Source of the DNA: Bacilli bacterium
GTDB lineage: Bacteria > Bacillota_I > Bacilli_A > RFN20 > CAG-826
Reading direction: 5' to 3'
NCBI GenBank assembly: GCA_034185265.1
Contig: JAXFZD010000017.1
Coordinates: forward strand, 5,757 to 69,756
Length of the DNA: 64,000 bases
Shown here: in pieces, positions 8,139-32,411 of the stretch
Position numbering within the stretch: the stretch's first letter is position 1
Layout: each line of letters begins with the position of its first letter
The notes under the pieces: model-generated
Seen by the model: only the letters and a program-made list of their open reading frames with translations
Database searches by the model: none
What the model was told of the DNA's origin: nothing
Position numbers and translations under genes: made by a program

Positions 8139-8182
8139 AAAAAGCTATAGTTAATTAATATTTACATTAATTAAATTGTTTA

Positions 8183-8199
8183 TTAGATAAAGTTAGTCT
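8183..8199 (+). repeat. Degenerate tandem TTAGATA-AAG-TTAGTCT (member of the TTAG-heptad family)
   Basis: Shares the 10-mer AAAGTTAGTC with the dxs-upstream copy at 15851-15860. It lies in the spacer of a TTGTTT-17-TATGAT promoter-like sequence upstream of hisS. Confidence 0.35.
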
Positions 8200-8235
8200 A
8201 TGATAAATTAACCTTAAATTTAAGGAGGTTTTTTG

Positions 8236-9543: not shown

Positions 9544-9552
9544 GAGATAATT

Positions 9553-11289
9553 ATGAACAGAACTGATTTTAATGGAAATTTAAGAGCAGCTGATGAAGGA
9601 AAACATGTTGAACTTGTCGGCTGGGTTGCTAATAGAAGAAACCTTGGATCGTTACTTTTTATTGATTTAAGAGATTATAGTGGAATCGTCCAGCTTGTTT
9701 CTTCTTCTCCAGATTCTCTTCCAGAAATTAAAAACGAATATGTAATCGGAGTTAAAGGAATTGTTAGAAAGAAAGAAGTTCCTAATAAGAATTTAGCTAC
9801 TGGAGAAATTGAAGTAGAAATTACTGAACTTAGAGTAATCAACAAGTCCATGCCAACTCCTTTCATAATTGCAGATAAATCAGATGCGTTAGAAGAAACT
9901 AGACTTCCTTATAGATATCTTGATTTAAGAAGACCAGTTTTGCTAAATAATCTTAAAACTAGAGCAAAAATCGTAAAAATCTGGCATGAATACTTAGATT
10001 CTAAGGGATTTATTGAAGTTGAAACTCCAATTCTTAATCTTTCTTCTCCAGAAGGAGCAAGAGATTATTTAGTTCCTTCTAGGGTTCATCCAGGAAGCTT
10101 CTACGCTTTACCTCAATCTCCTCAATTATGGAAACAATTACTTATGGTTGGTGGAATTGAAAGATATTATCAAGTTGCAAAATGCTTTAGAGACGAAGAT
10201 TTACGTGCAGATAGGCAACCTGAATTTACTCAACTTGATTTAGAAGTATCTTTCATGTCTCAAGATGAAATTCTTTCTCTTCAAGAAGGATTCTTAGCGA
10301 GAATATTTAAAGAAATAGTTGGATATGATGTTCAATTACCTTTAAGAAGAATGAAATATTGGGATGCAATGGACATTTATGGATCAGATAAACCTGATAC
10401 TAGATATGGACTTACTTTAGTTGATATAACTGAAATAATGAAGAAATCGACTTTTGAAGGCTTTGCTGAAGCTAAATATATTAAGGCTATCGTTGTTCCT
10501 AATATGGCTTCTCAAACAAGCAGAAAGAACGTTGATGAAGTAGTTGCTGAAGGAAAGAAATTTAAATTAAAAGGCGTCACAGCTCTTAAATATTTGAATA
10601 ATACTTTGGAAGGTTCATTCACTAAATTCTTAAATGAAGAAATAATTGCTGAACTTATTAAGAAACTTAATTTATCCGATAACGACTTAGTGTTATTCTC
10701 TTCATCTTCTTCTAGAAGAGATATTGACTTTGGACTAGGCGCAATAAGAACTATGTACGCTAAGAAATTAGAATTAATTAAAAAAGGTACATATGACTTA
10801 TTGTGGGTTATTGATTTCCCAATGTTTGACTTAGTAGATGAAGAAAAGGGCATCTATGCTGCTGAACATCATCCATTTACTAGACCTAGAGATGAAGATT
10901 TACATTTATTAGACACTAATCCAGAAGAAGTTTTAGCTTACGCTTACGACATTATTATTAATGGATATGAAGCAGGTGGAGGAACTCTACGTATTTATGA
11001 TCATGATACTCAATGGAAGATTTTCAAACTTCTAGGATTATCTGATGAAGACGTTGAAAGAAAATTTGGCTGGTTCATCAATGCATTTAATTATGGCGCG
11101 CCACCTCATGGAGGAATCGCTTTTGGATTAGATAGACTTGCTATGATTTTAGTCGGCAGTGACAACATCAAAGACGTTGAAGCATTCCCTAAAAATCTTC
11201 AAGCAAGCGATCCAATGTCAAAAGCTCCAACTCCAGTTGACCAAGACCAACTTGATGTGCTTAATATACAAGTTAAGCAAGAAAGTTAG
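9553..11289 (+). CDS. aspS: Aspartate--tRNA ligase
   Basis: 578 aa. Motifs FRDEDLRADRQPEFTQLD and GGIAFGLDRL are present. The hisS-aspS pair matches Bacillota. Confidence 0.95.
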   Translation: MNRTDFNGNLRAADEGKHVELVGWVANRRNLGSLLFIDLRDYSGIVQLVSSSPDSLPEIKNEYVIGVKGIVRKKEVPNKNLATGEIEVEITELRVINKSMPTPFIIADKSDALEETRLPYRYLDLRRPVLLNNLKTRAKIVKIWHEYLDSKGFIEVETPILNLSSPEGARDYLVPSRVHPGSFYALPQSPQLWKQLLMVGGIERYYQVAKCFRDEDLRADRQPEFTQLDLEVSFMSQDEILSLQEGFLARIFKEIVGYDVQLPLRRMKYWDAMDIYGSDKPDTRYGLTLVDITEIMKKSTFEGFAEAKYIKAIVVPNMASQTSRKNVDEVVAEGKKFKLKGVTALKYLNNTLEGSFTKFLNEEIIAELIKKLNLSDNDLVLFSSSSSRRDIDFGLGAIRTMYAKKLELIKKGTYDLLWVIDFPMFDLVDEEKGIYAAEHHPFTRPRDEDLHLLDTNPEEVLAYAYDIIINGYEAGGGTLRIYDHDTQWKIFKLLGLSDEDVERKFGWFINAFNYGAPPHGGIAFGLDRLAMILVGSDNIKDVEAFPKNLQASDPMSKAPTPVDQDQLDVLNIQVKQES

Positions 11290-11293
11290 TATC

Positions 11294-11314
11294 TATCGAT
11301 ATAATAACTACTAA
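11294..11314 (+). repeat. Copy of the TATCGATATAA-N3-CTACTAA intergenic element
   Basis: TATCGATATAATAACTACTAA matches 27755-27775 at 19 of 21 positions. It lies between aspS and tkt. Confidence 0.5.
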
Positions 11315-11347
11315 AAATATACTTTATAATTACTAGGAGATTACTAT

Positions 11348-13477
11348 ATGAGCAAACAGATGAGTAAAAAAGAAAAAGAAAAATTAGTTTCAGGAGCAAT
11401 AAGAAGTTTAGTTATTGATCAGACTAATCAAGCAAACTCTGGACACCCAGGAATGGCTTTAGATTCCGCAAATATCTTATATGCCTTATATAGAGATCAC
11501 TTAGTTGCATCTCCAAGTCATCCAGAATGGATAAATAGAGATAGACTTGTTTATTCTTGCGGTCATACATCTGCTTTAGTCTACGCAATGCTTCATTTAT
11601 GCGGATATGAATTAAGCATGGATGACCTAAAATCATTTAGACAACTAGGAAGTAAGACTCCAGGACACCCAGAAATCTCTTTAACTAAAGGAATTGATGC
11701 TTCTAGCGGACCATTAGGTCAAGGAATTGCTCAAGCTTTAGGAATGGCAATCGCTGAAAAGCATTTAGAAGCTAAATATCCTGAAGGAAAGAAGATAATG
11801 AACCATTATACCTACTGTATATGTGGGGATGGTTGCCTTGAAGAAGGTATTTCTCAAGAAGCAATTTCTCTTGCAGGACATCTTAGATTAAATAAATTCA
11901 TTCTTATTTATGATGAAAATGGCTCAACTTTAGATGGACCAACTTCAAATTCTTTAACTGAAAACATGGAGCTTAGATTCTTAGCTTCTGAATGGTTAAC
12001 TATCAAAGTTAAAGATGGAAATAACATAAATGAAATCTCTAGAGCTATTAAAAAAGCTAAGAAATCAGCTTATCCAACATTAATTATTGTTAAAACTAAG
12101 ATTGGATATGGAACTGTCTTAGAAGGCTCTAATAAAGTACACGGGTCTCCTTTAGGAGAAGAAAATGGAGCAAAAGCAAAAGAAGTTTATGGATATAATC
12201 ATCCTAAATTCACTGTTCCTGCTGAAGTTTATGAAGAATTTAAACAAACATTTATCGCTAGAGGAGAAGAGGCTTATAAAGCTCATATTGTTGAATTAAA
12301 TAAATATAGAAACTCTCATCCTTCTGAATATAAAGTTTTCATGGATTCTTTTGATAGGAACGTTGATCCTTACTTAGAAAATATCTCTATTGAGCTTAAA
12401 GATGAAGCAAGTAGAGAATCTAGTGGAAGAATGTTAGAAGCTTTAACTAAAAATGTTCCATTTATGTTTGGAGGAAGCGCTGATGTGGCTTCTTCAACAA
12501 AGACTAATGTAAAAGGTCTTAAAGATTTCTCTTCTTTAACTCCAGAAGGAAACAACATGAACTGGGGAATTAGAGAATTTGTTATGGCTGCTGCCAATAA
12601 TGGAATTCTTCTCCACGGCGGATTAGTTACCTATGAAGGATTATTTTTAATTTTCGCTGATTATATGAAACCAGCTATAAGAATGGGCGCAATAGAAGAT
12701 CTTCCTGCAATTTATGTATTTACTCACGATTCGATTTCAGTAGGAGAAGATGGCTTAACTCATGAACCAATCGAGCAAATTGCTTCTTTACGTTCAATTC
12801 CTAACTTTATTGATATTCGTCCAGCAGATAATAAAGAAACTATCGGAGCTTATAAATTAGCTTTAAAAGAGAAAAAGTCCCCGATTGGTCTTATTCTTTC
12901 TAGACAAAAACTTCCTTTATTAGATGAAACCGATGAAAAGAAAGTTCAATTTGGCGCTTATAAAGTTAGGGAACATAAAGATGATAAATATTTAATTATC
13001 GCTACAGGAAGCGAAGTTAACTTAGCTTTAGAAGCTGCAAAAAGAATAGAAGAAGAAAGAAATATCCATGTTGGAGTAGTTTCTATGCCTTCTATGAATT
13101 TATTTGAAAAGCAAAGCGAAGAATATAAGAAGCTTGTTCTTTCTTTACCTAGAGAAAAGACAATTTCTTTAGAAATGGCCGCAACTTTTGGCTGGGAAAG
13201 ATATGCTAAATTTAATTTAGGAATCAATTCTTTCGGCGCTAGTGGAAAAGAAAAAGATGTTCTTAAATATTTCGGATTTGATCTAGATGGAACTACGAAG
13301 AAGTTACTTGACATAATTGATCACGATAATGAAGAAATTAAACCAGCAAAAGTTGAATCTAAGAAAGAAGAAAAGCCTTTAGAAACTGCTAAAGTTGAAG
13401 AAAAACCTCTTAAAGAAGAAAAGAAAGAAAAGAAACCATATAGAATTCTTTTAGTAAAAAGAGAAGAACAAATCTAA
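11348..13477 (+). CDS. tkt: Transketolase with a roughly 50-aa Lys/Glu-rich C-terminal extension
   Basis: 709 aa. Motifs GHPGMALDSANILYAL and GDGCLEEGISQEA are present. An AGGAG SD is present. Confidence 0.9.
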   Translation: MSKQMSKKEKEKLVSGAIRSLVIDQTNQANSGHPGMALDSANILYALYRDHLVASPSHPEWINRDRLVYSCGHTSALVYAMLHLCGYELSMDDLKSFRQLGSKTPGHPEISLTKGIDASSGPLGQGIAQALGMAIAEKHLEAKYPEGKKIMNHYTYCICGDGCLEEGISQEAISLAGHLRLNKFILIYDENGSTLDGPTSNSLTENMELRFLASEWLTIKVKDGNNINEISRAIKKAKKSAYPTLIIVKTKIGYGTVLEGSNKVHGSPLGEENGAKAKEVYGYNHPKFTVPAEVYEEFKQTFIARGEEAYKAHIVELNKYRNSHPSEYKVFMDSFDRNVDPYLENISIELKDEASRESSGRMLEALTKNVPFMFGGSADVASSTKTNVKGLKDFSSLTPEGNNMNWGIREFVMAAANNGILLHGGLVTYEGLFLIFADYMKPAIRMGAIEDLPAIYVFTHDSISVGEDGLTHEPIEQIASLRSIPNFIDIRPADNKETIGAYKLALKEKKSPIGLILSRQKLPLLDETDEKKVQFGAYKVREHKDDKYLIIATGSEVNLALEAAKRIEEERNIHVGVVSMPSMNLFEKQSEEYKKLVLSLPREKTISLEMAATFGWERYAKFNLGINSFGASGKEKDVLKYFGFDLDGTTKKLLDIIDHDNEEIKPAKVESKKEEKPLETAKVEEKPLKEEKKEKKPYRILLVKREEQI

Positions 13478-13538
13478 CTTTTTTCTCTTTTAAGAGAAGA
13501 TTTGAGCAAGAGATTGTTCAATTATTAAAATAATTGGG

Positions 13539-13544
13539 TATAAT
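13539..13544 (+). promoter_or_regulatory. -10 box TATAAT exactly 6 nt before ATG 13551 (leaderless-type promoter)
   Basis: The sequence reads gggTATAATaactttATG. There is no Shine-Dalgarno sequence. Confidence 0.45.
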
Positions 13545-13550
13545 AACTTT

Positions 13551-13913
13551 ATGTCATTAAAAAATTACATGATAATTAATAACTACACAGGTCTAGGAAC
13601 TTTAGCTATTTCTAGAACTGCTTTAACTACGATTGTTGAAAAGTCAATCAAGTCAATGGAAGGCGCTGTTCTTACTGAAAAGAAAAAGAAAAGAGTTCCT
13701 TCTCCATTAGATAGATTCTCTTTAAATGACCCAGCAAAAGTAGTTTTTACAGCAGAAGGAAAACTTTTAATTAAATTAAATGTTTCTATCTTTGCTGGAA
13801 ATAATGTATCTGATACATGCTTAAATATTCAAAAAGAGATTTCCAATAATCTTCTCTACATGTGCGATACAATCCCATGTGAAATAAAAGTTCACGTAGA
13901 TAAAATCATTTAG
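13551..13913 (+). CDS. Asp23/Gls24-family (alkaline shock protein-like) protein
   Basis: 120 aa. It sits immediately upstream of nusB, like Bacillus yqhY. The family call rests on size and synteny plus weak sequence recognition. Confidence 0.55.
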   Translation: MSLKNYMIINNYTGLGTLAISRTALTTIVEKSIKSMEGAVLTEKKKKRVPSPLDRFSLNDPAKVVFTAEGKLLIKLNVSIFAGNNVSDTCLNIQKEISNNLLYMCDTIPCEIKVHVDKII

Positions 13914-13962
13914 TTGACATCAGCTAAATTTAACTTAAAAACACTTAAAAAAATTGATCTTT

Positions 13963-14409
13963 ATGCAAAACAACATTGAAAACGAACTAGAAAACGAATT
14001 ATCTTCACGTAATTCTTTACAGAAAATAGCGTTGTTTTGCTTATACGATATTTTGGTTTATAAAGAAGTAGATAAAGAAATTGATGTAGTTGACATCATC
14101 TCTTCTTTGTGCGAATGTGGCTATGATGAGGCTCCTATTTTTGTAAAAAGTATCGTAATTAACGCTTTAAAACATTTTGAATATGAAATAAAAACTATTG
14201 AACCATTCTTGACTAAATGGTCATTTTTTAGACTAAATAGACTAGCTCAAGCTATTTTACTTCTTTCTTTTACTCATTTTTTCTATGTAGAAGAAGATGT
14301 AAACAAGAGAATTGTTATAAATATTGCTGTTAAATTTGCTAAATTATATTTAGATGCCAACGACTATAAATACATTAACGCTGTCTTAGATAAAGTTTTA
14401 GTTAGGTAA
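13963..14409 (+). CDS. nusB: Transcription antitermination factor NusB
   Basis: The C-terminal motif YKYINAVLDKVL is present. The gene sits between the asp23-like gene and xseA. ATG 13963 is preferred over the TTG 13954 used by the ORF track. Confidence 0.7.
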   Translation: MQNNIENELENELSSRNSLQKIALFCLYDILVYKEVDKEIDVVDIISSLCECGYDEAPIFVKSIVINALKHFEYEIKTIEPFLTKWSFFRLNRLAQAILLLSFTHFFYVEEDVNKRIVINIAVKFAKLYLDANDYKYINAVLDKVLVR

Positions 14410-14413
14410 AAGA

Positions 14414-15619
14414 ATGAACAAAGACAAATTATTTACTGTCTCTACTTTAAACTCTCTTTTAAAACTAGAAATCGAATCGAACTCTCTTTTTCAAGGAATC
14501 TCCTTAAAAGGAGAGATTTCTTCTTTTAAAGCATATCCTAATGGGAATATTTATCTCTCGATAAAAGATGCAACTTCTTCGATAAATGCTGTATTTTGGT
14601 CTTCTTATTCTTCTAGACTAAAGTTTGTCCCTAAAATTGGAGATGAAGTTATAGTTTACGGAGGAATAAGCGTTTTTCAAAATAAAGGAACTTATCAATT
14701 TAATATCTTTTCGATGGAACTTGCTGGAAAAGGAGATCAGCTAGAAGCTTTAAAAGCTTTATATGAAAAGCTTAAAGCTGAAGGACTGTTTGATGAAGAA
14801 AATAAGCTTCCAATCCCATCTTTTCCTAGAAGAATTGGCGTAATAGCTGGAGAAAATAGCGCTGGAATGAAGGATATTGTTCACAATATTTCTTTAAGAA
14901 ATCCTTTGGTAGAGCTTTTTGTTTTTCCTTCTTTAGTCCAAGGAGTGAATGCCCCTAAAGATCTTCTTAGAGCCTTAGAATTTGCTAAAAAATGTTCTTT
15001 AGATGTTCTAATTATAGGAAGAGGCGGAGGAAGTAATGAAGATTTATCTGCATTTAACGATGAAACTTTAGTTAGAGCTCTTGCGGCTAGTAAACTTCCT
15101 ATAGTTTCTGCTGTAGGACACGAAATTGATACGACATTATGTGATTTAGTCGCTTCTAAAAGAGTTTCAACCCCAACAGCAGCCGCAGTTTTAGTAACAA
15201 TAGATCAAAATGAACTATTCTCTAGCTTTGACGAATATTCTCAAAGATTAAATTATTTAATTGGTAAGCATTTATCTAATCTTAGTGAGCAACTCAATAG
15301 TTTTAAATCTCGTCCATGCTTAAGTCGATATGATCATCAACTTACTGTAGGAAAAGATGCATTAGATTCGATTAAATCTAACTTTTTAAACGTTTTCTCA
15401 TCTTATTTTAACGAAAAAATTTCCTCATTTAATCTATATAAAGAGAAGTTAAATACTCTTTCTCCATATAATGTTTTAAATAGAGGTTATTCGCTTTTAG
15501 AAAATGAAGATGGTAAGATTATTTCTTCTATTGAAGAAATTAATGTAGGGGAAGAAGTGAAAACACATCTTCATAATGGTATAATTTATTCTAGAGTTAG
15601 TAAAAAGGAGTCCAAATAA
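14414..15619 (+). CDS. xseA: Exodeoxyribonuclease VII large subunit
   Basis: 401 aa with an N-terminal OB fold and a catalytic core. Its stop overlaps the xseB start (TAATG). Confidence 0.9.
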   Translation: MNKDKLFTVSTLNSLLKLEIESNSLFQGISLKGEISSFKAYPNGNIYLSIKDATSSINAVFWSSYSSRLKFVPKIGDEVIVYGGISVFQNKGTYQFNIFSMELAGKGDQLEALKALYEKLKAEGLFDEENKLPIPSFPRRIGVIAGENSAGMKDIVHNISLRNPLVELFVFPSLVQGVNAPKDLLRALEFAKKCSLDVLIIGRGGGSNEDLSAFNDETLVRALAASKLPIVSAVGHEIDTTLCDLVASKRVSTPTAAAVLVTIDQNELFSSFDEYSQRLNYLIGKHLSNLSEQLNSFKSRPCLSRYDHQLTVGKDALDSIKSNFLNVFSSYFNEKISSFNLYKEKLNTLSPYNVLNRGYSLLENEDGKIISSIEEINVGEEVKTHLHNGIIYSRVSKKESK

Positions 15620-15825
15620 TGGCAGATACATCTAATATTTCTTTTGAAAACAAAATTGAAAGAGTTAAAGAGATCGTTGATAAAATGGAAAACGAAACTC
15701 TTCCTTTAAACGAGTCTGTTTCGTTATTTGAAGAAGGGCAAAAGCTTCTTAAAGAACTTGAAGAAGAACTTAAAAAAGCTGAAATTAAAATTAAGACAAT
15801 TAAAGAAGAAAAAGATATCGAATAG
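15619..15825 (+). CDS. xseB: Exodeoxyribonuclease VII small subunit
   Basis: 68 aa, coiled-coil protein. It is translationally coupled to xseA. Confidence 0.85.
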   Translation: MADTSNISFENKIERVKEIVDKMENETLPLNESVSLFEEGQKLLKELEEELKKAEIKIKTIKEEKDIE

Positions 15826-15843
15826 TAAGAATAAAGTAAAATA

Positions 15844-15861
15844 TTAGTAGAAAGTTAGTCG
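15844..15861 (+). repeat. Tandem TTAGTAG-AAAG-TTAGTCG (11-nt period)
   Basis: Direct heptad repeat ending 4 nt before the dxs ATG. No SD is present there. Confidence 0.45.
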
Positions 15862-15865
15862 AAAA

Positions 15866-17755
15866 ATGTCCGATAAAATCAAAAGAATTAATGTAAAAGA
15901 GATTGAGAACCCGACATTTTTAAAAACGCTCTCTTATCCATCAATTAAGCTTCTTTGTCATGACATTAGACATGAAATAATTGATGCTTGCAGCCAATAT
16001 GGCGGACATCTTTCTAGTAACTTAGGCGTAGTTGAATTAACTGTTGCCTTACATAGAGTTTTTGACTTTAACAAAGATAAATTAATCTTTGATGTTGGCC
16101 ACCAATCTTATGTTCATAAGATTTTAACAGGTCGCTCTTTAACAAAAATAAAGCAAAGAGGTTATATTTCTGGATTCCAAAAACGCAGTGAATCTATTTA
16201 TGATCCTTATGAAGCAGGGCATTCTTCAACTTCAATTTCTGCCGCTCAAGGATTTGCCTTAGTTAGAGATTTAAAGAAAGAAAACTTCGATGTAATCGCA
16301 CTTATTGGGGATTCTTCCATAGTTAACGGTTTAGCTTTTGAAGCTTTGAATTCCATTACAGAAACACATTCTAAAGTAATAATTGTCCTTAATGACAACG
16401 GAATGAGCATCTCTAAACCTGTTGGAGGAATTGGAAAGTTCTTTAGAAAAGTTTCCCTAGATAAAGCCTATAGAAAATTTAAAAAAGGATACAAAAGAGT
16501 TCTCTATAGAGGAACTTTGGGAAAGAAATTTGTCGATTTTACATCTTCATTTAAGAACGCATTAAAGCGTAGATTAGTTCCTGTTACCATGTTTGATAAC
16601 ATGGGTTATACATATTTAGGCCCAATTGATGGACACGATATAAAAGCTCTTGAAAAAGTCTTTAAAAAAGCAAAAACATACGATAAATCCACAATTATTC
16701 ATGTTAAGACAATAAAAGGAAAAGGTTATAAATACGCTGAACTTGATACAGCAGGATATTGGCACGGGGTAACTCCTTTTGATATTGAAACTGGTAGACC
16801 AAAGAAATACCATCCAGGTTTAATTTCTTGGAGTCATTACATTTCTGATCTAACTAGATTAATGATGAAAGAACATCAAAATTCTTTCTTAATTGTTCCT
16901 GCAACCCAAAAAGGAGCTGGACTAGGTCAATGTTTACAAGAATTCCCAGAAAGATGTATTGATGTAGGCATTTCTGAAGAACACGCTCTTACTCTTGCTG
17001 GCGCTATTGCTTTGAACAATATGCACCCAATTGTTTCGATATATTCGACATTTTTACAAAGAGCATACGACGAACTTTCTCATGACTGCGCTAGAATGGA
17101 TGTCAGCATGACAATTTTAATAGAAAGAGCTGGACTCGTTGGGGGAGATGGAGAAACTCATCAAGGAATTTATGATGAAGCTTACTTAAAATCTATTCCA
17201 AATATCATTTTAACTATGCCTTCGACTAAAGAAATTGCTTATTCATTGTACCAACAATCTTTTGCTCATCATGGAATATTCGCTATTAGATTCCCAAGAG
17301 ATTTTGTCCAAGAAAGAGAAGATTATCACCCAATTCCTTTACCTTATTTAAGATGGAGATGGGCGAATATTACTAAGAAAAAAGATTTAGCAATCATTTC
17401 AGTTGGTCCTCATGCAAATGAACTAGAAAAACTATTAAGAAAAGAGGGAGTTGAAGCTGAAGTTATCGATCCAGTCTATATTTTCCCAATTTTAAAAGAC
17501 AATTTAATTCTCTTACTTTCTTATAAAAACATCCTTATTTATGATGCTTATGCAACTAAAAACGGCTTTGCTGAATCAATTTTATCTGAATTAATGCTTC
17601 TTTCTTATAAAGGAAGTGTTTTTGTTAGAGCAATCCCAAATATGTTTGTTTCTCAAGGAACTATAGTTGAACAAGAACAAGAATTCGGATTACGCCCAGA
17701 ACAAATCTTAGTTAAAGCTAAAGAAATATTAGAAAATACCAAAAAAGTTAAATAA
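15866..17755 (+). CDS. dxs: 1-deoxy-D-xylulose-5-phosphate synthase
   Basis: 629 aa. Motif GHLSSNLGVVELTVALH and the TPP motif GDSSIVNGLAFEALN...LNDNGMS are present. The xseAB-dxs synteny is conserved. Confidence 0.9.
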   Translation: MSDKIKRINVKEIENPTFLKTLSYPSIKLLCHDIRHEIIDACSQYGGHLSSNLGVVELTVALHRVFDFNKDKLIFDVGHQSYVHKILTGRSLTKIKQRGYISGFQKRSESIYDPYEAGHSSTSISAAQGFALVRDLKKENFDVIALIGDSSIVNGLAFEALNSITETHSKVIIVLNDNGMSISKPVGGIGKFFRKVSLDKAYRKFKKGYKRVLYRGTLGKKFVDFTSSFKNALKRRLVPVTMFDNMGYTYLGPIDGHDIKALEKVFKKAKTYDKSTIIHVKTIKGKGYKYAELDTAGYWHGVTPFDIETGRPKKYHPGLISWSHYISDLTRLMMKEHQNSFLIVPATQKGAGLGQCLQEFPERCIDVGISEEHALTLAGAIALNNMHPIVSIYSTFLQRAYDELSHDCARMDVSMTILIERAGLVGGDGETHQGIYDEAYLKSIPNIILTMPSTKEIAYSLYQQSFAHHGIFAIRFPRDFVQEREDYHPIPLPYLRWRWANITKKKDLAIISVGPHANELEKLLRKEGVEAEVIDPVYIFPILKDNLILLLSYKNILIYDAYATKNGFAESILSELMLLSYKGSVFVRAIPNMFVSQGTIVEQEQEFGLRPEQILVKAKEILENTKKVK

Positions 17756-17774
17756 TTATCGAAATATTTTTTAT

Positions 17775-17790
17775 TTTTGTTAACATAATA
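17775..17790. promoter_or_regulatory. Exact 16-mer TTTTGTTAACATAATA shared with the XerD arm of the dif candidate; it covers the dinB -10-like CATAAT
   Basis: Identical to 24124-24139. CATAAT at 17784-17789 lies 5 nt before ATG 17795. Confidence 0.45.
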
Positions 17791-17794
17791 TTGT

Positions 17795-18970
17795 ATGACT
17801 AGAATAATCATGCATATTGATTTGGATGCCTTTTTTGCTAGATGCGAAGAAATTAAAAATCCTTCTTATGAAAAGGTTCCTTTAGCAATTGGAACTAGAG
17901 GAAGAAGCGGGATTATTTCAACTAGCAACTATGAAGCTAGAAAATATGGAGTTAGATCAGGTCAACCAACATTTTTAGCAGATAGAAATTGTCCTTCTTT
18001 AGTTTTAGTTCCTCCAGATTTTTCTTTTTATAAGAAAATGTCTGATAAATTCTTTAAATTTATATCTTCTTTTACAAAAGAAATAGAAAAAGTTTCGATA
18101 GATGAATGCTTTTGTGACGTAACTTCTTTACTTTATAATCATAAATCTCCCATGGAATTTCTTTCTTCATTACAGAAAAAACTATTCGAATTAACTTCTT
18201 TAAAATGTTCAATAGGGGTTGCTCCAACTAAATGGCTAGCCAAAATGTCTTCTGAAATAAAAAAGCCAATGGGAATCACAATTTGTAGAAGAAAAGATAT
18301 TCCTAATATTATTTATCCGCTCCCAATAGAATCTTTCTGGGGAATAGGAAAGAAAACTTCTCCTAAACTCAGAAACTATGGAATAAACACAATCGGAGAG
18401 TTAGCTACTGCAATAGAACAAAATGATCCTTTAGTCTCTAATTTATTAGGTAAATTTTATTTTACAGTCAGAGAATGGATTAAAGGATATGGAGAAGACC
18501 AAATAAATAAGGAACCTTTTGACCCTAAATCTATTGGAAATCAAGAAACTTTGATGGAAAATTCTACAACTTTTGATCAAATAGAAGAGACTTTATATAG
18601 ACTTGCTGAAGAAGTTTCTTCTAGAGCTAAGTCTTCTAAAAAAGTAGGAAAAACTCTTTCAGTTGTAGTTAAAGATACATCTTTCCATCTTCATTCAAAA
18701 AACGTTAGCTTACTTTCTCCAACTAACGATTTCTCGACTATTTTCTCTAAAGCCTCCTCGATATATAGACAATATTTTGAAGGACAAGAGATTAGATTAA
18801 TCGGAATAACCCTAGAAAGACTTGAAAATATAAATAAAGAAGAAGCCCAAATGTCTATCTGGAATTATGAAGAATATGAAAAGAAAGATAAAACAAATAT
18901 TCTGATTAATTCTTTAAACAAGAAATTAAAGAAGAATTCATTAAAAAGAGCGAGTGAGATTAAAAAATGA
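17795..18970 (+). CDS. dinB: DNA polymerase IV (Y-family)
   Basis: 391 aa. Motifs IMHIDLDAFFARCEE and SIDECFCDVT are present. It ends in TGA, overlapping the xerD start (ATGA). Confidence 0.9.
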   Translation: MTRIIMHIDLDAFFARCEEIKNPSYEKVPLAIGTRGRSGIISTSNYEARKYGVRSGQPTFLADRNCPSLVLVPPDFSFYKKMSDKFFKFISSFTKEIEKVSIDECFCDVTSLLYNHKSPMEFLSSLQKKLFELTSLKCSIGVAPTKWLAKMSSEIKKPMGITICRRKDIPNIIYPLPIESFWGIGKKTSPKLRNYGINTIGELATAIEQNDPLVSNLLGKFYFTVREWIKGYGEDQINKEPFDPKSIGNQETLMENSTTFDQIEETLYRLAEEVSSRAKSSKKVGKTLSVVVKDTSFHLHSKNVSLLSPTNDFSTIFSKASSIYRQYFEGQEIRLIGITLERLENINKEEAQMSIWNYEEYEKKDKTNILINSLNKKLKKNSLKRASEIKK

Positions 18971-19857
18971 AAGAACTCGAAATACATGAAGCTTTAGACA
19001 ACTATGTTGATTATCTTTATTCTTCTAAAGGACTAACAAAAAACTCCGTTAAAGCTTATGAAGATGATATCAAACGTTTTTTAGCTTATTTTCCTGATAA
19101 AAAGCTAACAAATCAGCTTAGCGACTATGATTTAGAAGACTTTGCGAATCTTTCTGCTGAAGATGGACTTTCTCCTTCAACGATTTCTAGACGACTTTCT
19201 TCTTTATATAACTTCTTCGTTTATCTTTCTAATCATGAATTAATGGAATTTTCTAAAGAAAAGATAGATAGACCGTCACTTCCTGAAAGATTTCCTTCTA
19301 TTTTAACCGTTGAAGAAGTTGAAGATCTTCTAAATGCACCAAACATTGAAAAAGAAAGCGGACAAAGAGATAAAGCAATGTTAGAAATTATGTATTGTTC
19401 AGGTTTAAGAGTCTCAGAACTAGTTGCTTTAAAAATGAGAGACGTCCATTTTGATAAACAAATAATTTCTATTAAGGAAGGAAAAGGAAGGAAAGATCGA
19501 AATATTCCTGTTTCTAAATTTGCTTTAGATTATCTAGAGCAATATATTCAAGGATATAGACGCTCAAATAAAGGAAAGAATTCTCCTTATATTTTCTTAA
19601 ATAGAGATGGCAAACCTGTCTCAAGAAATTATTTCTTTAAGCAAGTTAAAAAATATGCTGCCGAAGCAAATATAAATAAAAGCATTTCTCCTCATACATT
19701 AAGACACTGCTTTGCAACTCATCTAATAGAAAACGGTGCTGATTTACTTTTAGTTTCTAGAATGCTTGGACATTCTTCTTTAGAAACTACTCAAATTTAT
19801 ACTCATTTATCCTCTCAAAGAATTCTTCAAGCTTACGATAAATTCTCTAAAAAATAA
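18967..19857 (+). CDS. xerD: Tyrosine site-specific recombinase XerD
   Basis: 296 aa. Catalytic motifs HTLRHCFATHL and LGHSSLETTQIYTHL are present. It lies directly upstream of deoB, like Bacillus ripX-drm. Confidence 0.85.
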   Translation: MKELEIHEALDNYVDYLYSSKGLTKNSVKAYEDDIKRFLAYFPDKKLTNQLSDYDLEDFANLSAEDGLSPSTISRRLSSLYNFFVYLSNHELMEFSKEKIDRPSLPERFPSILTVEEVEDLLNAPNIEKESGQRDKAMLEIMYCSGLRVSELVALKMRDVHFDKQIISIKEGKGRKDRNIPVSKFALDYLEQYIQGYRRSNKGKNSPYIFLNRDGKPVSRNYFFKQVKKYAAEANINKSISPHTLRHCFATHLIENGADLLLVSRMLGHSSLETTQIYTHLSSQRILQAYDKFSKK

Positions 19858-19871
19858 GTATCATTAAACAA

Positions 19872-19892
19872 ACATTATTTATTAAATAATGT
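19872..19892. promoter_or_regulatory. Perfect 10+1+10 palindrome ACATTATTTA-T-TAAATAATGT abutting the deoB -10 (TATAAT 19892-19897)
   Basis: Read directly from the sequence. A GAGG SD and ATG 19922 follow. Confidence 0.4.
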
Positions 19893-19921
19893 ATAATAAA
19901 AGCATCTTTGAGGTAATAACT

Positions 19922-21127
19922 ATGTCAAATTACAAATTTAACCGCGTTTTCTTGATTATATTAGATAGTGCTGGAGTTGGAGAAGAACCTGATGCAGCGC
20001 TTTTTGATGATGTAGGAACAAATACTTTTGCTCACGCAGCTGAATCTATTAATGGACTTAACGTTCCTTATATGGAATCTATGGGTTTAGGTGAACTAGA
20101 TGATATCATGGGAGTAAAAGTAGTTAAAGATCATCCTCATAGTTTTTCTCTTAGACTCAGAGAAACTTCTCTAGGAAAAGATACAATGACTGGTCACTGG
20201 GAAATGATGGGCATAAATACTAAAAAACCTTTCCAAACATTCACAGATACAGGATTCCCACAAGAACTGATCGATAAATTAGAGAAACTTATGGGACATA
20301 GGATAATCGGAAATATCTCAGCTAGTGGAACTGAAATTATTAAGCAACTTGGCGAAGAAAGTATGAGAGATAATTCTTTAATTGTTTATACTTCTTCAGA
20401 TTCTGTTCTTCAAATCGCTGCTAATGAAGATGTTTTAGGACTAAATGAACTTTATAGATGCTGTGAAATTGCTAGAGAAGTTTGCATGGAACCTAAATAT
20501 TTTGTAGGCAGAGTTATCGCTAGACCCTTTAGAGGAACAAACGCGTCTAACTTTGTTAGAGATGGCGCTGCTAGACATGATTACACAGTTTCTCCAACAG
20601 CTCTTACAGCTTTAGAAATCTTAAAAGATAATGGGTTAGAAGTCTCTGGGGTAGGGAAAATTAATGATATCTTTAACGGAGTAGGAATTACGAGAACAAT
20701 TCATACAGCTAAAAATGTAGAGGGTATGGATGAAACTATCCGTCAAGTTAAAGAAGAAGATTATAAAGGATTATGCTTTATTAATTTAGTAGAATTCGAT
20801 TCTGAATATGGACATAGAAGAAATCCTGTAGGGTATGCAAGAGCTTTAGAAGAATTTGATGAAAAGCTTGGAGAACTTCTAAAAGTAATTAAAGATGATG
20901 ATTTAATTATGATTAGTGCAGATCATGGAAACGATCCAATATATAAAGGAACAGACCATACAAGAGAAAAAGTCCCGCTACTTATCTATTCTAAATCAAT
21001 AACAAACGGAAAATATCTAGAAGAGAGACCAACTTTTGCCGATATAGGGGCAACTATATTAAAGAATTTCCATTTAGACCATTCTTCTTTAGATTTAGGC
21101 TCTCCTATAGAAGAAGTTCTCTCTTAA
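19922..21127 (+). CDS. deoB: Phosphopentomutase
   Basis: Motifs FLIILDSAGVGEEPDA and SADHGNDP are present. The start is set at ATG 19922, behind GAGG. The ORF-track start at 19889 lies inside the promoter palindrome. Confidence 0.9.
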   Translation: MSNYKFNRVFLIILDSAGVGEEPDAALFDDVGTNTFAHAAESINGLNVPYMESMGLGELDDIMGVKVVKDHPHSFSLRLRETSLGKDTMTGHWEMMGINTKKPFQTFTDTGFPQELIDKLEKLMGHRIIGNISASGTEIIKQLGEESMRDNSLIVYTSSDSVLQIAANEDVLGLNELYRCCEIAREVCMEPKYFVGRVIARPFRGTNASNFVRDGAARHDYTVSPTALTALEILKDNGLEVSGVGKINDIFNGVGITRTIHTAKNVEGMDETIRQVKEEDYKGLCFINLVEFDSEYGHRRNPVGYARALEEFDEKLGELLKVIKDDDLIMISADHGNDPIYKGTDHTREKVPLLIYSKSITNGKYLEERPTFADIGATILKNFHLDHSSLDLGSPIEEVLS

Positions 21128-23698: not shown

Positions 23699-23981
23699 TT
23701 TTGTCAATGAAAAACCTATTTTGCCTTTATATATAAAATAGTTTATAGGAAATATTATATTCTTTCAGCCATCATTTCTTAGGTTCTAAAACTTTAATTA
23801 TTTTGTTTGATGAAAATAAAATTAAAGCAATTGATTAAAAATAAAATTGACCAGATTGTTTGATCTTTATTTTTAATCTTATCTAAAGTTTCAATGTGCA
23901 AAATTATCAATACATTTTTATATAAACTGACAAAAAATAATGAGTAATCCTTTTTTGAATAACTAAGAGGGTATATTTATA

Positions 23982-24017
23982 TTAGTAGAAAATTAGTAGT
24001 TTTATAAATTTACTAAT
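23982..24017 (+). repeat. TTAGTAG-AAAA-TTAGTAG tandem plus an inverted TTACTAA copy
   Basis: Direct repeats at 23982-23988 and 23993-23999. AATTAGTA (23991-23998) can pair with TACTAATT (24011-24018). Confidence 0.45.
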
Positions 24018-24126
24018 TCTGTGGATAAGTTTGACTTTTCCTAAAGATTGTTTGAATCATATATAAAATTATATATCTTATGTGTATATTAAATTCTTCA
24101 GTATTCATCGAGAGAATTTTATATTT

Positions 24127-24154
24127 TGTTAACATAATAACTATTATGCGAAGT
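24127..24154 (-). other. dif: Candidate chromosome dimer resolution site dif (XerC arm - 6 bp spacer - XerD arm)
   Basis: The minus strand reads ACTTCGCATAA-TAGTTA-TTATGTTAACA. It lies in the non-coding gap where gene orientation switches, 4.3 kb from xerD. Confidence 0.6.
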
Positions 24155-24182: not shown

Positions 24183-24222
24183 AAAAAGCAAAATAAAACC
24201 ACCGCTACTGCTCTTCGGTGGT
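24183..24222 (-). terminator. Rho-independent terminator after rsfS
   Basis: ACCACCG (24198-24204) pairs with CGGTGGT (24216-24222). On the minus strand this is followed by TTTTATTTTGCTTTTTT. Confidence 0.7.
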
Positions 24223-27807: not shown

Positions 27808-30462
27808 TTAGAAGTCATCATCTCCAAATATAGAAATTTGTTCAAATTTTTCTTTTCCAAAGTCAGAATCGCTTGGCATTATTTCTTTTATTTGAGGTTG
27901 AGAAGTTTCTTGATCACTATTATTAGATTCTTCAGAGACTTCATTATCATTATTTATAATAGAAGGAGTTACAGCTTTTGTATTTTCATTAATTACTTCA
28001 TCATCAAATAAGTTAATATACTTAATTAATGTCTTCTTAGGTAACGCTATATCCCCTGACTTAGCATATTTATCCATTGGAGTTAAATATAAATCAGGAA
28101 CAGTAAATTCAATTCTTTGTCCATTGGTTAAAGTAGCAAAGAATCTATAAACTTCGTTCTTATCGTTAACTTTATAGGCAAATACAAGATTATTAGGATC
28201 GTTTTTAAAGCATTTAAATAGCGTTGTAGCTTTAGAAAGTCTCTCCGATGGAGAAATATTCATCGTGGAGAAAACTCTTAGATGTCCTCCATCAGTAACT
28301 AATATAATTTTCTTATTTCCCTCATCTAAGTCAATTGGGATTAAAGAAGCCACACTGCCACCTTTAAAGCTACCGGCTTTAACTCCTGAAGAAGAAGTTG
28401 AAGTTACGGCGATTAAATTCTCATTATATAAAGTAGCTAAGCCGTTATTAGCTAAAACTAAACAATATGTATCTCCGCTAGTTTGAATTGCACCAACTAC
28501 TTCATCATCAGCAAGAAGTTTCATTGCTCTAATTGGTCTATTGTATCTAGAAACCGGAATTGAAGAGACTTTTATACGTTTAATCATTCCTTTTCTACTA
28601 GCTAAGACAAAATATAGATCATCTCTAAACTTTCTAACGATAAATGCTTTAACTATCTTATCATCCGCATCTAAAGAAATCGCATAATTAACATGTAATC
28701 CTTCATCAAGCCACTTACTAACTTTAAGAAGATGAACAGGAACATATAAATAATTTCCTTTAGAAGTGAACATAACAAGGTAATCTGTAGTTAAAGCTAA
28801 TCCAGAATAAACTAATGTATCTCCGTCTTTTAGACCAGGGAAAGCCCCATTATGTCCGTTACTTCCTTTATAAGAAGCTATAGAAGAACGTTTGATGTAG
28901 CCATCTTTAGTTACAACAACCATAACTTCTTCTTTAGAAATTAAATCTCTAGTATCAATAGACTTAGCTTCATAAGATTCTTCTTTAATTTCAGTTCTTC
29001 TTTCATCTCCATAAGTCTTTGCTATAGTGCGTAAATCAGAGATTAAAAGTTTATGTAAAGAATCTCTATTATTGAGGATGTCTTCTAAGTAAATAATGTT
29101 TTCTTTTAAGGAAGCAGCTTCATTTTCTAAAGCAACTACGTCAGCATGAGAAAGCTTATATAAAGGCATCATCGTGATTGCTTCGCTTTGTTCTTCGCTA
29201 AATCCAAATTCTTTTTGTAAATTTAATTTAGAATCTGCTTTATCTTTACTTGCTCTAATAATTGCGATTACTTGATCAATAATCGAGGTTACGCGGATTA
29301 ATCCTTCAACAATTTCTAGTCTAGACTTATTTTTATTTAGATCAAATCTAGATTTTCTTTCTATTACATCTTCTTGATGAGCAATATATGTATCACAATA
29401 AGTTAATAAATTTAAAGTTTGAGGACGTCCATTAACTATAGCGACCATATTCATTGAGAAAGAAGATTTCAAAGCTGTTTTATTCATTAAATAGGATAAA
29501 ATAGCGTTTTCGTTTGCTTCTTTCTTTAAATCAATTGCAATTCTTATACCAGTTTTATCGGTTTCATCTCTAACTTCTTCAATTCCAGGGAGAACTTTAT
29601 CAAATCTAAGTTTATCTATTGCTTTAACTAAGTCTGATTTAACTATTCCATAAGGAATCTCTGAAATGATAATTTGTCTAACACCTTTATTATTCTCTAT
29701 GGAAGTTCTAGAAACTACATCGATTCTTCCTCTACCCGTAAGATAAATGTCTTTTAATCCTTGAGATTGATAAATAATTCCTCCAGTAGGGAAATCTGGT
29801 CCAGGAATATAATTCATTAAGGATTCAATTGGACAAGAAGGATGCTCAATTCGGTGAATTATTGCTCCAATAAGTTCTTTTAAGTTATGAGGAGCAATTT
29901 CTGTTGCAATACCTACAGCAATTCCACTAGTTCCATTTAATAATAAATTAGGGAAACGAGATGGTAAAACTGCTGGTTCAAATTCAGTGTCGTCAAAAGT
30001 AAGCACCATATCGACACTATTTTTATCTAAATCTCTAATTAATTCTTTTGATAAAGCGCTAAGTCTGGCTTCAGTATATCTATAAGCTGCAGGTCCATCT
30101 CCATCCATCGAGCCGTTATTTCCTTGGAAATCAATTAAAGGAAGTCTAATCTTCCAAGTTTGACTCATTCTAACTAAAGCTTCATAAATAGAAGAATCTC
30201 CGTGAGGATGATATTTACCCATAACTTCACCAACTATGTGAGCACATTTTTTAGTTGGCTTATCTATTGTATTTCCTGTTTTATACATTGCGTAGATAAT
30301 TCTTCTTTGAACTGGTTTAAGGCCATCTCTAGCATCAGGAATTGCTCTATCTTGAATAACATCTTTAGCGTAAATATCAAAACGATCTCCCATTAATTCA
30401 TCTAAAGGAGAAACATTAATTTGCTCAATAATTGGGCTAATTACGTCTTTTTCTTTCTTCAT
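27808..30462 (-). CDS. parC: DNA topoisomerase IV subunit A
   Basis: 884 aa. The active-site region AAYRYTEARL is present. I saw no GyrA-box. The plsY / parE-parC neighbourhood is typical of Bacillota. Confidence 0.85.
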   Translation of the reverse strand: MKKEKDVISPIIEQINVSPLDELMGDRFDIYAKDVIQDRAIPDARDGLKPVQRRIIYAMYKTGNTIDKPTKKCAHIVGEVMGKYHPHGDSSIYEALVRMSQTWKIRLPLIDFQGNNGSMDGDGPAAYRYTEARLSALSKELIRDLDKNSVDMVLTFDDTEFEPAVLPSRFPNLLLNGTSGIAVGIATEIAPHNLKELIGAIIHRIEHPSCPIESLMNYIPGPDFPTGGIIYQSQGLKDIYLTGRGRIDVVSRTSIENNKGVRQIIISEIPYGIVKSDLVKAIDKLRFDKVLPGIEEVRDETDKTGIRIAIDLKKEANENAILSYLMNKTALKSSFSMNMVAIVNGRPQTLNLLTYCDTYIAHQEDVIERKSRFDLNKNKSRLEIVEGLIRVTSIIDQVIAIIRASKDKADSKLNLQKEFGFSEEQSEAITMMPLYKLSHADVVALENEAASLKENIIYLEDILNNRDSLHKLLISDLRTIAKTYGDERRTEIKEESYEAKSIDTRDLISKEEVMVVVTKDGYIKRSSIASYKGSNGHNGAFPGLKDGDTLVYSGLALTTDYLVMFTSKGNYLYVPVHLLKVSKWLDEGLHVNYAISLDADDKIVKAFIVRKFRDDLYFVLASRKGMIKRIKVSSIPVSRYNRPIRAMKLLADDEVVGAIQTSGDTYCLVLANNGLATLYNENLIAVTSTSSSGVKAGSFKGGSVASLIPIDLDEGNKKIILVTDGGHLRVFSTMNISPSERLSKATTLFKCFKNDPNNLVFAYKVNDKNEVYRFFATLTNGQRIEFTVPDLYLTPMDKYAKSGDIALPKKTLIKYINLFDDEVINENTKAVTPSIINNDNEVSEESNNSDQETSQPQIKEIMPSDSDFGKEKFEQISIFGDDDF

Positions 30463-32411
30463 TACTTAGTTACCTCCTTGATAAAGGAGTCTTCTTCGTT
30501 AAAGGAAATGTTTTCTTCAATCCATTCTCTACGTTTACTTGCATCATTTCCCATTAAAGTTGAAATACGTTTTTCTACGACTAAAGGATCGTTAATAGAG
30601 ACTCTAAGAAGTCTACGAGTTGCTTTATTCATTGTAGTTACAGCGAGTTGATCAGCGTTCATCTCACCTAAACCTTTATATCTGTTAATTCCATACCCTG
30701 GGCCAATCTTAGCTTTAGCATCTTCTAACGAAGCATCATCCCAAGCATAAAGGAATTTCTTGTTAGGTTCGCTCTTTTTATAAACTTTATATAAAGGCGG
30801 GCAGGCAATATAAACCATTCCATTAGTAATTAATGGTTTCATGAAATTGTAGAAGAAGGTTAAAAGAAGAATTTGGATATGAGCGCCGTCAGTATCAGCA
30901 TCAGTCATGATTATGATTTTGCCATATCTAGAATCTTCAACATCAAAATCTGGACCAACTCCAGCTCCAATAGTTTGAATAATTGTGGCAAATTCTTGAT
31001 TAGCCTTCATTTTTTCAATACTTATTCCATCAGTATTTAGTGGTTTACCTCTTAAAGGAAGAATTGCTTGATGAAGTCTATCTCTACCTGATTTAGCGCT
31101 TCCTCCTGCAGAATCTCCCTCAACGATAAATAATTCATTGTTCTTATAATCTTTACTTTGAGCAGAGGCTAGTTTATCAGAAATTACCATCTCAACTGAT
31201 TTTTTCTTATTTCCTCTAGCGGCTTCTTTAGCTTTTCTAGCAGCATCTCTAGCATTTTTCGCTGCTTGAACTTTCTTAATCAAATCAATTGCGAATTCTT
31301 TATGTTCGGCAAGATAATGAACTAAATTATCATATATAAAATCAGAAACTTCTCCAAAGGCTTGAGGAGTTCCTAATTTTGCCTTAGTTTGTCCGTCATA
31401 TTGAGCAATATCTTCAGGAATCTTTAAAGAAATAACTGCAGTTAAGCCTTCTCTAATATCGATTCCGTCGAGTTTTCCGCTCTCTTTTATAATTCCATTT
31501 TGTATCGCCCAGTCATTAATTGCTTTAGTTATACCAATTTTTAATCCAGTTTCATGAGTTCCACCGTCATGAGTTCTAACAGAGTTAGCATAAGAATAAA
31601 TATTCTCGTTATAATCTTTTAAACACCACTGCAAGGCAGCTTCAATCTTAATTAATCTATCTTCGTCGTCAAAATATAGAATCTCTCCTAAAGGACTCTT
31701 ATTTTGATTAATTAAATTTACATATTCTTGTAAACCATTTTGAAAGAAGAATTCATGAGATTGTCCGCTTCTTTCATCTTTTAAATAAAAATGAACTTTT
31801 TTAAGTAAAAATGCTTGCTCTTGCAAATGATCGTAAACTGTTTCCCACTTAAAATCTACAGTAGTAAACATGCGTTTATCAGGTTTGAATCTTACAATTG
31901 TTCCATGTTTTCTAGTTGGACCAAGTTCTTCTAAAGGAGTAACGAGCTTTCCACCATCTTCAAATCTAATATGATAAGAAATGCCACCTCTATTTACGAT
32001 AATATCGCAATAATCTGATAAAGCATTTGTAACGCATGCACCCATTCCGTGCAAACCAGAAGAAGTCGAATAGGCTTTATTTGAGAATTTTCCTCCAGAA
32101 TGAAGAGTTGTATAAACAAGTTGAACAGCAGGAATTCCAGTTTTTTTATGAATATCTACAGGAATACCTCTTCCTTCATCTTCAACAGTTACTGATCCAT
32201 CTTTATGTAAGGTGACAAAAATCTTATTTCCATGGCCATTGACAGCTTCATCAACACCATTATCAACAATTTCCCAAATTAAATGATGAAGTCCATTGGA
32301 ATTTGTTGTTCCAATATAGACTCCAGGACGTTTTCTAATACCTTCGATTTCTGAGAGAATCTCAATATTAGAAGCGTTATAATTCATTTCATCTTTTAAA
32401 AAATCGTCCAT
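30462..32411 (-). CDS. parE: DNA topoisomerase IV subunit B
   Basis: 649 aa. The GHKL ATPase N-terminus EGIRKRPGVYIGTT and the Toprim motif EGDSAGGSAK are present. It is coupled to parC by a 1-nt overlap. Confidence 0.9.
   Translation of the reverse strand: MDDFLKDEMNYNASNIEILSEIEGIRKRPGVYIGTTNSNGLHHLIWEIVDNGVDEAVNGHGNKIFVTLHKDGSVTVEDEGRGIPVDIHKKTGIPAVQLVYTTLHSGGKFSNKAYSTSSGLHGMGACVTNALSDYCDIIVNRGGISYHIRFEDGGKLVTPLEELGPTRKHGTIVRFKPDKRMFTTVDFKWETVYDHLQEQAFLLKKVHFYLKDERSGQSHEFFFQNGLQEYVNLINQNKSPLGEILYFDDEDRLIKIEAALQWCLKDYNENIYSYANSVRTHDGGTHETGLKIGITKAINDWAIQNGIIKESGKLDGIDIREGLTAVISLKIPEDIAQYDGQTKAKLGTPQAFGEVSDFIYDNLVHYLAEHKEFAIDLIKKVQAAKNARDAARKAKEAARGNKKKSVEMVISDKLASAQSKDYKNNELFIVEGDSAGGSAKSGRDRLHQAILPLRGKPLNTDGISIEKMKANQEFATIIQTIGAGVGPDFDVEDSRYGKIIIMTDADTDGAHIQILLLTFFYNFMKPLITNGMVYIACPPLYKVYKKSEPNKKFLYAWDDASLEDAKAKIGPGYGINRYKGLGEMNADQLAVTTMNKATRRLLRVSINDPLVVEKRISTLMGNDASKRREWIEENISFNEEDSFIKEVTK

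Follow-up and report, generated by a model that had tools for sequence, protein, structure and literature searches.

The 28-bp sequence at positions 24127-24154 of the DNA analyzed here, read on the minus strand, is very probably the dif site on the chromosome of an uncultured bacterium of low GC content within the Bacilli, and it probably lies in or very near the replication terminus of that organism. By "the window" we mean the whole 64-kb stretch in which the site is found. Metagenome assemblies are the sole record of the source organism, and the relatives with which it was compared belong to the same uncultured Bacilli clade. A dif site is an ordinary chromosomal feature and its occurrence here is not surprising; it is newly recorded in a poorly known lineage. 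The decisive support for the identification is comparative, and it is joined by the position of the site at a junction of gene orientation and by the presence of a recombinase gene close by. The same three lines of evidence uphold the reading of an earlier note on this DNA, which had proposed a dif site of the XerC/D type at a point where two replichores converge. The features discussed below are collected in Table 1.

Table 1. Features in and around the probable dif site, with positions numbered along the window.
Feature	Position	Strand	Remark
XerD-like tyrosine recombinase, 296 aa	18967..19857	+	presumed catalyst at the right arm
Phased CTACTAAT repeats	23981..24018	-	two direct copies 11 nt apart and one inverted
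Perfect DnaA-box word TTATCCACA	24020..24028	-	starts 98 nt past the XerD-type arm
AT-rich spacer, dif to DnaA-box word	24029..24126	.	length of 86-98 nt and AT-richness kept
Probable dif core, 28 bp	24127..24154	-	ACTTCGCATAATAGTTATTATGTTAACA, i.e., ACTTCGCATAA-TAGTTA-TTATGTTAACA
Right (XerD-type) arm TTATGTTAACA	24137..24127	-	
Central region TAGTTA, 6 bp	24143..24138	-	
Left (XerC-type) arm ACTTCGCATAA	24154..24144	-	
Predicted rsfS intrinsic terminator	24190..24222	-	stem ACCACCG/CGGTGGT then T-run, read from sequence; hairpin flagged at 24204-24222
parC (topoisomerase IV)	27808..30462	-	TIGR01061 parC_Gpos, 842 bits, above cutoff
parE (topoisomerase IV)	30462..32411	-	best match parE_Gpos

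The 28-mer is present on the minus strand exactly where the earlier note had placed it, and its layout of two 11-bp arms around a 6-bp centre, with the inner CATAA and TTATG, is confirmed. That note had also given an identity of 20/28 to the dif of E. coli and of 21/28 to that of B. subtilis, and both figures are reproduced with the reference sequences printed in Kono et al. 2011 (PMC3025954). The right, XerD-type arm is identical to each of the two references at 9/11 positions, and the left arm agrees with E. coli at 8/11. The chance level of such a likeness was estimated with a pattern made from the positions common to the E. coli and B. subtilis sites, applied to dinucleotide-preserving shuffles of the window, whose GC content is 31%. 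With up to two mismatches the pattern picks out 24127-24154 alone, and the shuffles lead one to expect 0.11 matches per window at this stringency and 1.72 with up to three mismatches. Since matches arise in shuffled DNA at this rate of 0.11 per window, likeness to the reference sites is by itself only suggestive, being weakly significant in such AT-rich DNA; it is the position at the junction and the conservation in relatives that lift the site far above chance. The 28-mer occurs once in the window, even when up to three mismatches are allowed.

The relatives were found through homologs of the adjacent recombinase and by a metagenome scan, which together provided 12 lineages beyond that of the window (L131, L134, L136-L139, L142, L143, L145, and L431-L433), so that 13 lineages were compared. 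Their XerD-like proteins are 45-67% identical to that of the window, and the genomic GC content of the lineages ranges from 30 to 58%. Ten further contigs of the same species carry the identical 28-mer but are uninformative on conservation, as they are about 99% identical to the window throughout. In the fetched DNA spanning the junction, each of the 13 lineages has exactly one perfect (17/17) match to ACTTCNNATAA-N6-TTATGTNAA, always on the strand opposite to xerD, just beyond the 3' end of rsfS, and between the xerD-deoB unit and rsfS. The loci of the relatives measure 9-21 kb each and contain a single site wherever the fetched DNA spans the junction. Over the 13 sites, 17 of the 22 arm positions are invariant (9/11 in the left arm, 8/11 in the right), as is one of the six spacer positions and none of 40 flanking positions; the arms average 1.85 and 1.67 bits of information, the spacer 1.02, and the flanks about 0.6. 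The AT-rich arms are unaltered even in genomes of 52-58% GC, and the consensus of the clade can be written ACTTCG[CT]ATAA-TNNNNA-TTATGTTAA. Conserved arms between a variable centre and variable flanks form the footprint expected of a Xer core site, in which the arms would be bound by protein and the centre would be free. The pattern is also confined to the clade in the material searched: among 80 metagenome loci (689 kb) matches of at least 15/17 occur only in four clade members, and no match of at least 15/17 to ACTTCNNATAA-N6-TTATGTNAA is present in the roughly 600 kb of the 73 loci whose XerC/D genes are more distant.

This conservation bears directly on the possibility that the sequence is a chance AT-rich palindrome, or else the operator of a local regulator such as the Crp-like product of 23114-23698. 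Loose matches to a dif consensus are not rare in DNA of 31% GC, and the Crp-family gene ends only 428 nt from the site, which lends the suggestion some initial appeal. The arms are nevertheless unchanged in the genomes of 52-58% GC, and the site is kept in lineages that have no Crp-like gene at this place (among them L134, L137, L138, and L433). The genes on both sides end toward it, which leaves no promoter there to be regulated, and the conserved arms are asymmetric, unlike the operator of a homodimer. The conservation pattern in practice refutes this explanation, and we give it almost no credence. The second-best matches to the clade pattern in the window reach 14/17, for example, at 23726-23753; this match is not kept in L131 and was treated as chance, as was a weak dif-like direct repeat at 23698-23724, which is likewise not kept there.

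The probable dif occupies a junction at which gene orientation changes. The earlier note had described the genes of 1..21127 as lying on the plus strand and almost all of those from 24237 onward as lying on the minus strand, and the open reading frames agree with this description: those of at least 90 aa listed in 1..21127 are all on the plus strand, save two short ones nested in longer frames, and to the right of 24237 nearly all are on the minus strand, the clear exceptions being plsY, ispG, and ispH. Counted over the window, genes on the plus and minus strands number 15 and 2 to the left of the site, and 4 and 34 to the right of it, and the genes converge in every relative too.

The proposal in the earlier note that GC skew should turn near the site stands only in part. 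The cumulative G-C curve does peak at 24188, 34 nt from the site, and the cumulative T-A curve has its minimum at 23684; the flip of the raw skew, however, largely restates gene orientation. At third codon positions the GC skew has the sign opposite to that of the raw skew on both sides of the site, and it is codon positions 1 and 2 that generate the raw skew. The coding strand is C-rich at the third codon position (mean of -0.14 over all coding sequences of the window) and G-rich at positions 1 and 2. With this composition, raw GC skew here mostly reports the orientation of genes, and GC skew was rejected as independent evidence for a terminus on account of the opposite sign at third positions. 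In five relatives, mostly those of higher GC content, the raw skew lacks the expected flip. These observations call for caution with skew-based calls of origin and terminus in metagenome-assembled genomes (MAGs) of this lineage, where raw skew tracks gene orientation. In intergenic DNA the skew amounts to +0.133 to the left of the site (221 G against 169 C) and to -0.120 to its right (324 G against 412 C), which provides modest independent support for the convergence of replication forks. The five genes oriented against the majority have a lower coding-strand skew than the rest, a trend in the direction expected of converging forks, although the difference is not significant.

Words that might steer a DNA translocase toward the site were also considered. 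The KOPS word GGGNAGGG, of which the window has no copies, and the SRS word GAGAAGGG are essentially absent from the window. Some purine-rich words are strongly polar, GAAGAAG occurring 62 times in the direction of dif and 25 times away from it, and GAAGAAAA 38 and 3 times, respectively, but the polarity of both is inseparable from the bias of the coding strand. Kono et al. (PMC3025954) argue that a dif site is found near the point at which the forks meet, and not necessarily at that point. The location of the site at or near the replication terminus, presumably opposite oriC, would follow mainly from the strand bias over 64 kb and from the nature of dif sites.

The site lies in a gap of 538 bp (23699-24236) that had been described as non-coding, and the gap indeed contains no open reading frame of at least 60 aa, only four of 27-40 aa that are unconserved. 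It is bounded on the left by the Crp-family gene mentioned above, on the plus strand, and on the right by rsfS (24237-24581, minus strand), whose predicted terminator brings the right-hand unit to an end some 35 nt short of dif. Promoter-like matches in the gap do not exceed the chance level. A gene for a structured RNA was considered for the gap and rejected, as Rfam has no match at gathering score in the window and just a sub-threshold osmY match elsewhere; the absence of Rfam families at this score extends to T-boxes, none of which precedes hisS-aspS or the glycyl-tRNA synthetase gene. The 64-kb window contains no tRNA genes.

On either side of the gap the order of genes is shared with the relatives. 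The left block runs on one strand as (hisS-)aspS-tkt-asp23-nusB-xseA-xseB-dxs-dinB-xerD-deoB, and the right block on the other strand as rsfS-yqeK-yhbY-yqeH-yqeG-parC-parE. The genes parC and parE lie 3.7-8.3 kb to the right of dif, and a parC-type gene is placed likewise in the relatives wherever the fetched DNA reaches that far. The linkage of xerD, deoB, dif, the rsfS operon, parC, and parE spans about 13 kb and is found throughout the clade as far as the fetched DNA reaches, over its whole range of 30-58% GC; the recombinase, its site, and the decatenase are kept together in the clade.

Several other genes of the window deserve a remark in their own right. The yqeK-type HD protein encoded at 24581-25597 (minus strand, 338 aa) has an N-terminal stretch of about 130-165 aa without a recognizable NadD (CTP_transf_like) domain, a domain that is present in its orthologs of 337-370 aa in several relatives. 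The protein of the window may be a degenerated nadD-yqeK fusion. The open reading frames 21869-23065 (398 aa) and 53808-54611 (267 aa), both on the minus strand, have no match in Pfam or NCBIfam, and 61917-63344 (475 aa, minus strand) has none in NCBIfam. The first of these extends over the start of an ABC permease gene; relatives have counterparts of it in syntenic position, and these too are without a Pfam match.

The recombinase gene that the earlier note had put 4.3 kb away does end 4270 nt from the site, and an XerD-like gene is found 2-5 kb from dif in 13/13 lineages. Its product combines a Phage_integrase domain with a SAM-like N domain (Pfam). Among equivalog models the best score is that of the XerD model TIGR02225, with 301 bits against a cutoff of 329.6, followed by the XerC model with 261, so that the protein falls below both cutoffs; the tyrosine recombinase subfamily model NF001399 scores 284, which is above its cutoff. 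A search of the PDB gives E. coli XerD (1a0p, 1.8e-52) as the best match, with XerH far weaker at 2.8e-21, and the XerS model reaches 125 bits against a cutoff of 267. The catalytic set R148, K173, H243, R246, H269, and Y278 (R-K-H-R-H-Y) is invariant in 29 homologs. No second tyrosine recombinase that could serve as the XerC partner was found in any frame of the 64-kb window with a profile of the XerD-like homologs.

By analogy with XerCD/FtsK of E. coli and CodV-RipX of B. subtilis, the function of the site can be modeled as follows. An odd number of crossovers between sister chromosomes after replication would give rise to a chromosome dimer. On each dif copy, two Xer protomers would then occupy the 11-bp arms, with TTATGTTAACA bound by the XerD-like protein and ACTTCGCATAA by an XerC-type partner, and the two dif copies would be brought into synapsis at the division septum. 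Strand exchange catalyzed by these recombinases over the 6-bp central region, presumably activated by a translocase of the FtsK/SpoIIIE type, would resolve the dimer.

A variant of this model, in which the linked XerD-like protein would occupy both arms by itself, in the manner of XerS at difSL in streptococci and of XerH at difH in Helicobacter, is in our opinion unlikely, but it draws on several of the observations just described. In each of the 13 lineages the recombinase gene is found 2-5 kb from the site, and such linkage of gene and site is described as typical of single-recombinase systems in two reports on them (PMC1914069, PMC2731167). The XerD-like gene is one tyrosine recombinase standing by itself in 64 kb, its product misses the equivalog cutoffs of XerD and XerC alike, and its placement would be unusual for a canonical xerD: genes of that kind usually lie near the origin (Kono et al., PMC3025954), which is what makes an XerD-like gene beside dif uncommon. 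Against this variant, the two arms are unlike in their outer halves, with ACTTCG on the left and TGTTAA on the right, and each is separately invariant clade-wide, as two binding specificities would give; this is an indication of two specificities, not proof of them. The site has the 28 bp of XerCD-type sites and not the 31 bp of difSL, the matches of the protein to XerS and XerH are as poor as stated above, and its gene does not directly adjoin the site. A xerC gene may, moreover, sit elsewhere, the window being less than 5% of the genome.

Sequences with the arms of the clade are also found in viral DNA. A scan of IMG/VR returned 92 contigs with ACTTCG[N]ATAA-N6-TTATGTTAA, of 31-66% GC and many of them 4-15 kb long. 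The commonest versions of the site have TGTATA as central region and end in AAAT, and the sites often lie near a contig end, as is expected of elements that integrate by means of Xer. One of the contigs, L303 (5751 bp), encodes a microvirus capsid, a pilot protein, and a replication initiator, and has at about 2721-2748 the sequence ACTTCGCATAA-TTGTCA-TTATGTTAATA, i.e., the clade arms around the same spacer as in L139. ATTAGTAG repeats are also found at about 3140-3210 of this contig, directly upstream of the rep gene. Small phages such as microviruses integrate at dif with the help of the host Xer proteins, and L303 may be a Xer-exploiting phage of this clade; a microvirus with the same arms fits the view that these arms are genuine Xer-binding sequences.

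Arms identical to those of viral contigs, a microvirus among them, could also suggest that the site in the window is itself the scar or junction of a mobile element (an IMEX, a filamentous phage, or a microvirus) or a plasmid-type site such as cer, psi, or pdif. An integrated element would, however, leave two sites bracketing foreign genes. The window has one copy only, its next-best matches stopping at 14/17 and being unconserved in L131, and there are no phage or plasmid genes alongside, the neighbors being housekeeping genes in an order conserved over 13 lineages. As the site is single and flanked by housekeeping genes, it is to be regarded as the site of the host and not as the junction of an element, and an origin from a mobile element appears to us very improbable.

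A separate scan of genomes used the pattern ACTTCNNATAATNNNNNNTTATGTWAA, which has a 7-nt spacer, and was not a search for the site of the window. It returned ACTTCCGATAATGATATGTTATGTAAAC, a dif-like sequence with a spacer of this length, on dozens of contigs of two genomes, Ectobacillus panaciterrae and E. funiculus (loci L013, L019, L020, L023, L024, L026, L030, and others), and the near-identical ACTTCTGATAATCATCGATTATGTTAAT in many Staphylococcus species. Mobile elements or repeats with Xer-like ends are a possible explanation of these sequences.

The DNA beyond the XerD-type arm has conserved features of its own. The perfect DnaA-box word TTATCCACA listed in Table 1 is the single copy in the window. 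In 9 of the 13 lineages (the window, L134, L137, L139, L142, L143, L145, L431, and L433) a word of the form TTWTCCACW, either TTATCCACA or TTTTCCACA, is found in the same orientation at +114 to +126 from the start of dif, TTATCCACA itself being perfect in the window, L143, L145, and L431. Over the first 10 lineages the density of TTWTCCACW is 1.75/kb near dif and 0.06/kb elsewhere (Poisson P of about 7e-13). From its recurrence at this place, a DnaA-box-like word appears to be tied to dif across the clade. L139 and L145 have additional tandem boxes just upstream of dif. The DNA between dif and the box has no conserved columns in an alignment, and the region from +28 to +113 is poor in GC, with 16-28% in 11 lineages, including three whose genomes have 52-58% GC, and 34-38% in two lineages whose genomes have 54-57%. 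In the window the distance from dif to the box departs from that of the other lineages by roughly a helical turn. No precedent came up when the literature was searched for the motif words or for a DnaA box next to dif.

Phased repeats follow a little farther on. In a word search around 10 dif sites, AACTACTAA was the most widely shared non-trivial word, present at nine of the ten, at +141 to +167 from the start of dif and often in two or three copies 11 nt apart. The unit is TTAGTAG (reverse complement CTACTAA), repeated two or three times with an exact period of 11 nt. The window has further copies at 15844-15860, 27770-27786, 33273-33289, and 63389-63405, and also at 11306-11315. Of 39 phased pairs counted in the clade, all but one (38) are intergenic, though just 5.6% of the sequence is intergenic DNA. 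Most of the pairs follow the end of a gene at a distance of 5-40 nt, and they recur in either orientation at orthologous spacers such as xseB/dxs and aspS/tkt (L131-L145). A role of the CTACTAAT repeats as a dif-specific Ter/RTP-like or accessory element was rejected, as they occur at many gene ends far from dif. No protein of the RTP family was found among the window's open reading frames scanned with Pfam, four frames having been checked by NCBIfam or gene tables only, and the family is absent from the called-gene tables of the relatives. By their distribution, the phased repeats appear to be a clade-wide intergenic element, which could be the binding array of a DNA-binding protein or a signal that marks gene ends or acts as an insulator.

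We put forward only tentatively, and consider rather doubtful, the proposal that dif is one part of a larger terminus module, which would also comprise the AT-rich spacer of about 86-98 bp, the DnaA box in its fixed orientation, and the phased CTACTAAT repeats. If this were true and the box were bound by DnaA or another protein, it might exert accessory control over Xer recombination, a chromosomal analogue of the cer and psi systems on the XerD side. Alternatively, a protein-bound box could be a DnaA-titration or timing site at the terminus, which is replicated last, or could belong to a fork-arrest or transcription barrier that guards dif.

The site would fix the terminus and the boundaries of the replichores for a small-genome lineage of uncultured Bacilli known solely from metagenomes. 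It can be used in the scaffolding of MAGs, in growth-rate estimates based on coverage (peak-to-trough ratio), and in orientation-aware annotation, and the clade consensus serves the annotation of relatives. The site is also a likely target of integration for Xer-exploiting phages of the clade. The arrangement of xerD, dif, and parC/parE, together with the DnaA box at a fixed distance, makes a small and testable addition to what is known of termini outside the model organisms.

Compared with known systems, the site resembles the dif of E. coli, on which XerC-XerD and FtsK act, in its 28 bp, its 11-6-11 layout, the number of identical positions given above for the whole site and for each arm, and the apparent convergence of replichores. 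The best solved relative of the nearby recombinase is XerD of E. coli, and topoisomerase IV, which in E. coli acts at dif, is here encoded next door. The window differs from E. coli in that the outer bases of the left arm are of the Firmicutes type (ACTTC), the KOPS of E. coli are lacking, and the xerD-like gene is linked to dif. With the dif of B. subtilis, which is served by CodV-RipX and by SpoIIIE/SftA, it shares the ACTTC start of the left arm and the slightly higher identity already noted, as well as a host within the Bacilli with a strong bias of gene strand; the inner left arm reads CATAA, like that of E. coli, where B. subtilis has TAGAA, the SRS are essentially absent, and, unlike at the RTP/Ter fork trap of B. 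subtilis, no RTP-family protein was found in the open reading frames scanned.

Like XerS/difSL of streptococci and lactococci and XerH/difH of Helicobacter and Campylobacter, the clade has its recombinase gene linked to the presumed site throughout. The site of the window is shorter than difSL, though, its protein has 296 aa where XerS has about 356 and misses the XerS cutoff, deoB and other genes separate recombinase and site, which are 2-5 kb apart, and XerH matches the protein far less well than XerD does. In ColE1 cer and pSC101 psi, the accessory sequences flank the core on the XerC side, where PepA binds them together with ArgR or ArcA. A similarity to these plasmid sites lies in the protein-binding-like word, here the DnaA box, which an AT-rich spacer keeps at a fixed distance of about 90-100 bp from the core; in the window the site belongs to a chromosome, the conserved word is found beyond the XerD-type arm, and the role of the box is putative. 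Finally, the arms are identical to those of the attachment sites by which phages and IMEX elements mimic dif, as found on the 92 IMG/VR contigs, whereas the site of the window is single, flanked by housekeeping genes, and conserved by descent, and is thus the target of such elements and not an element itself.
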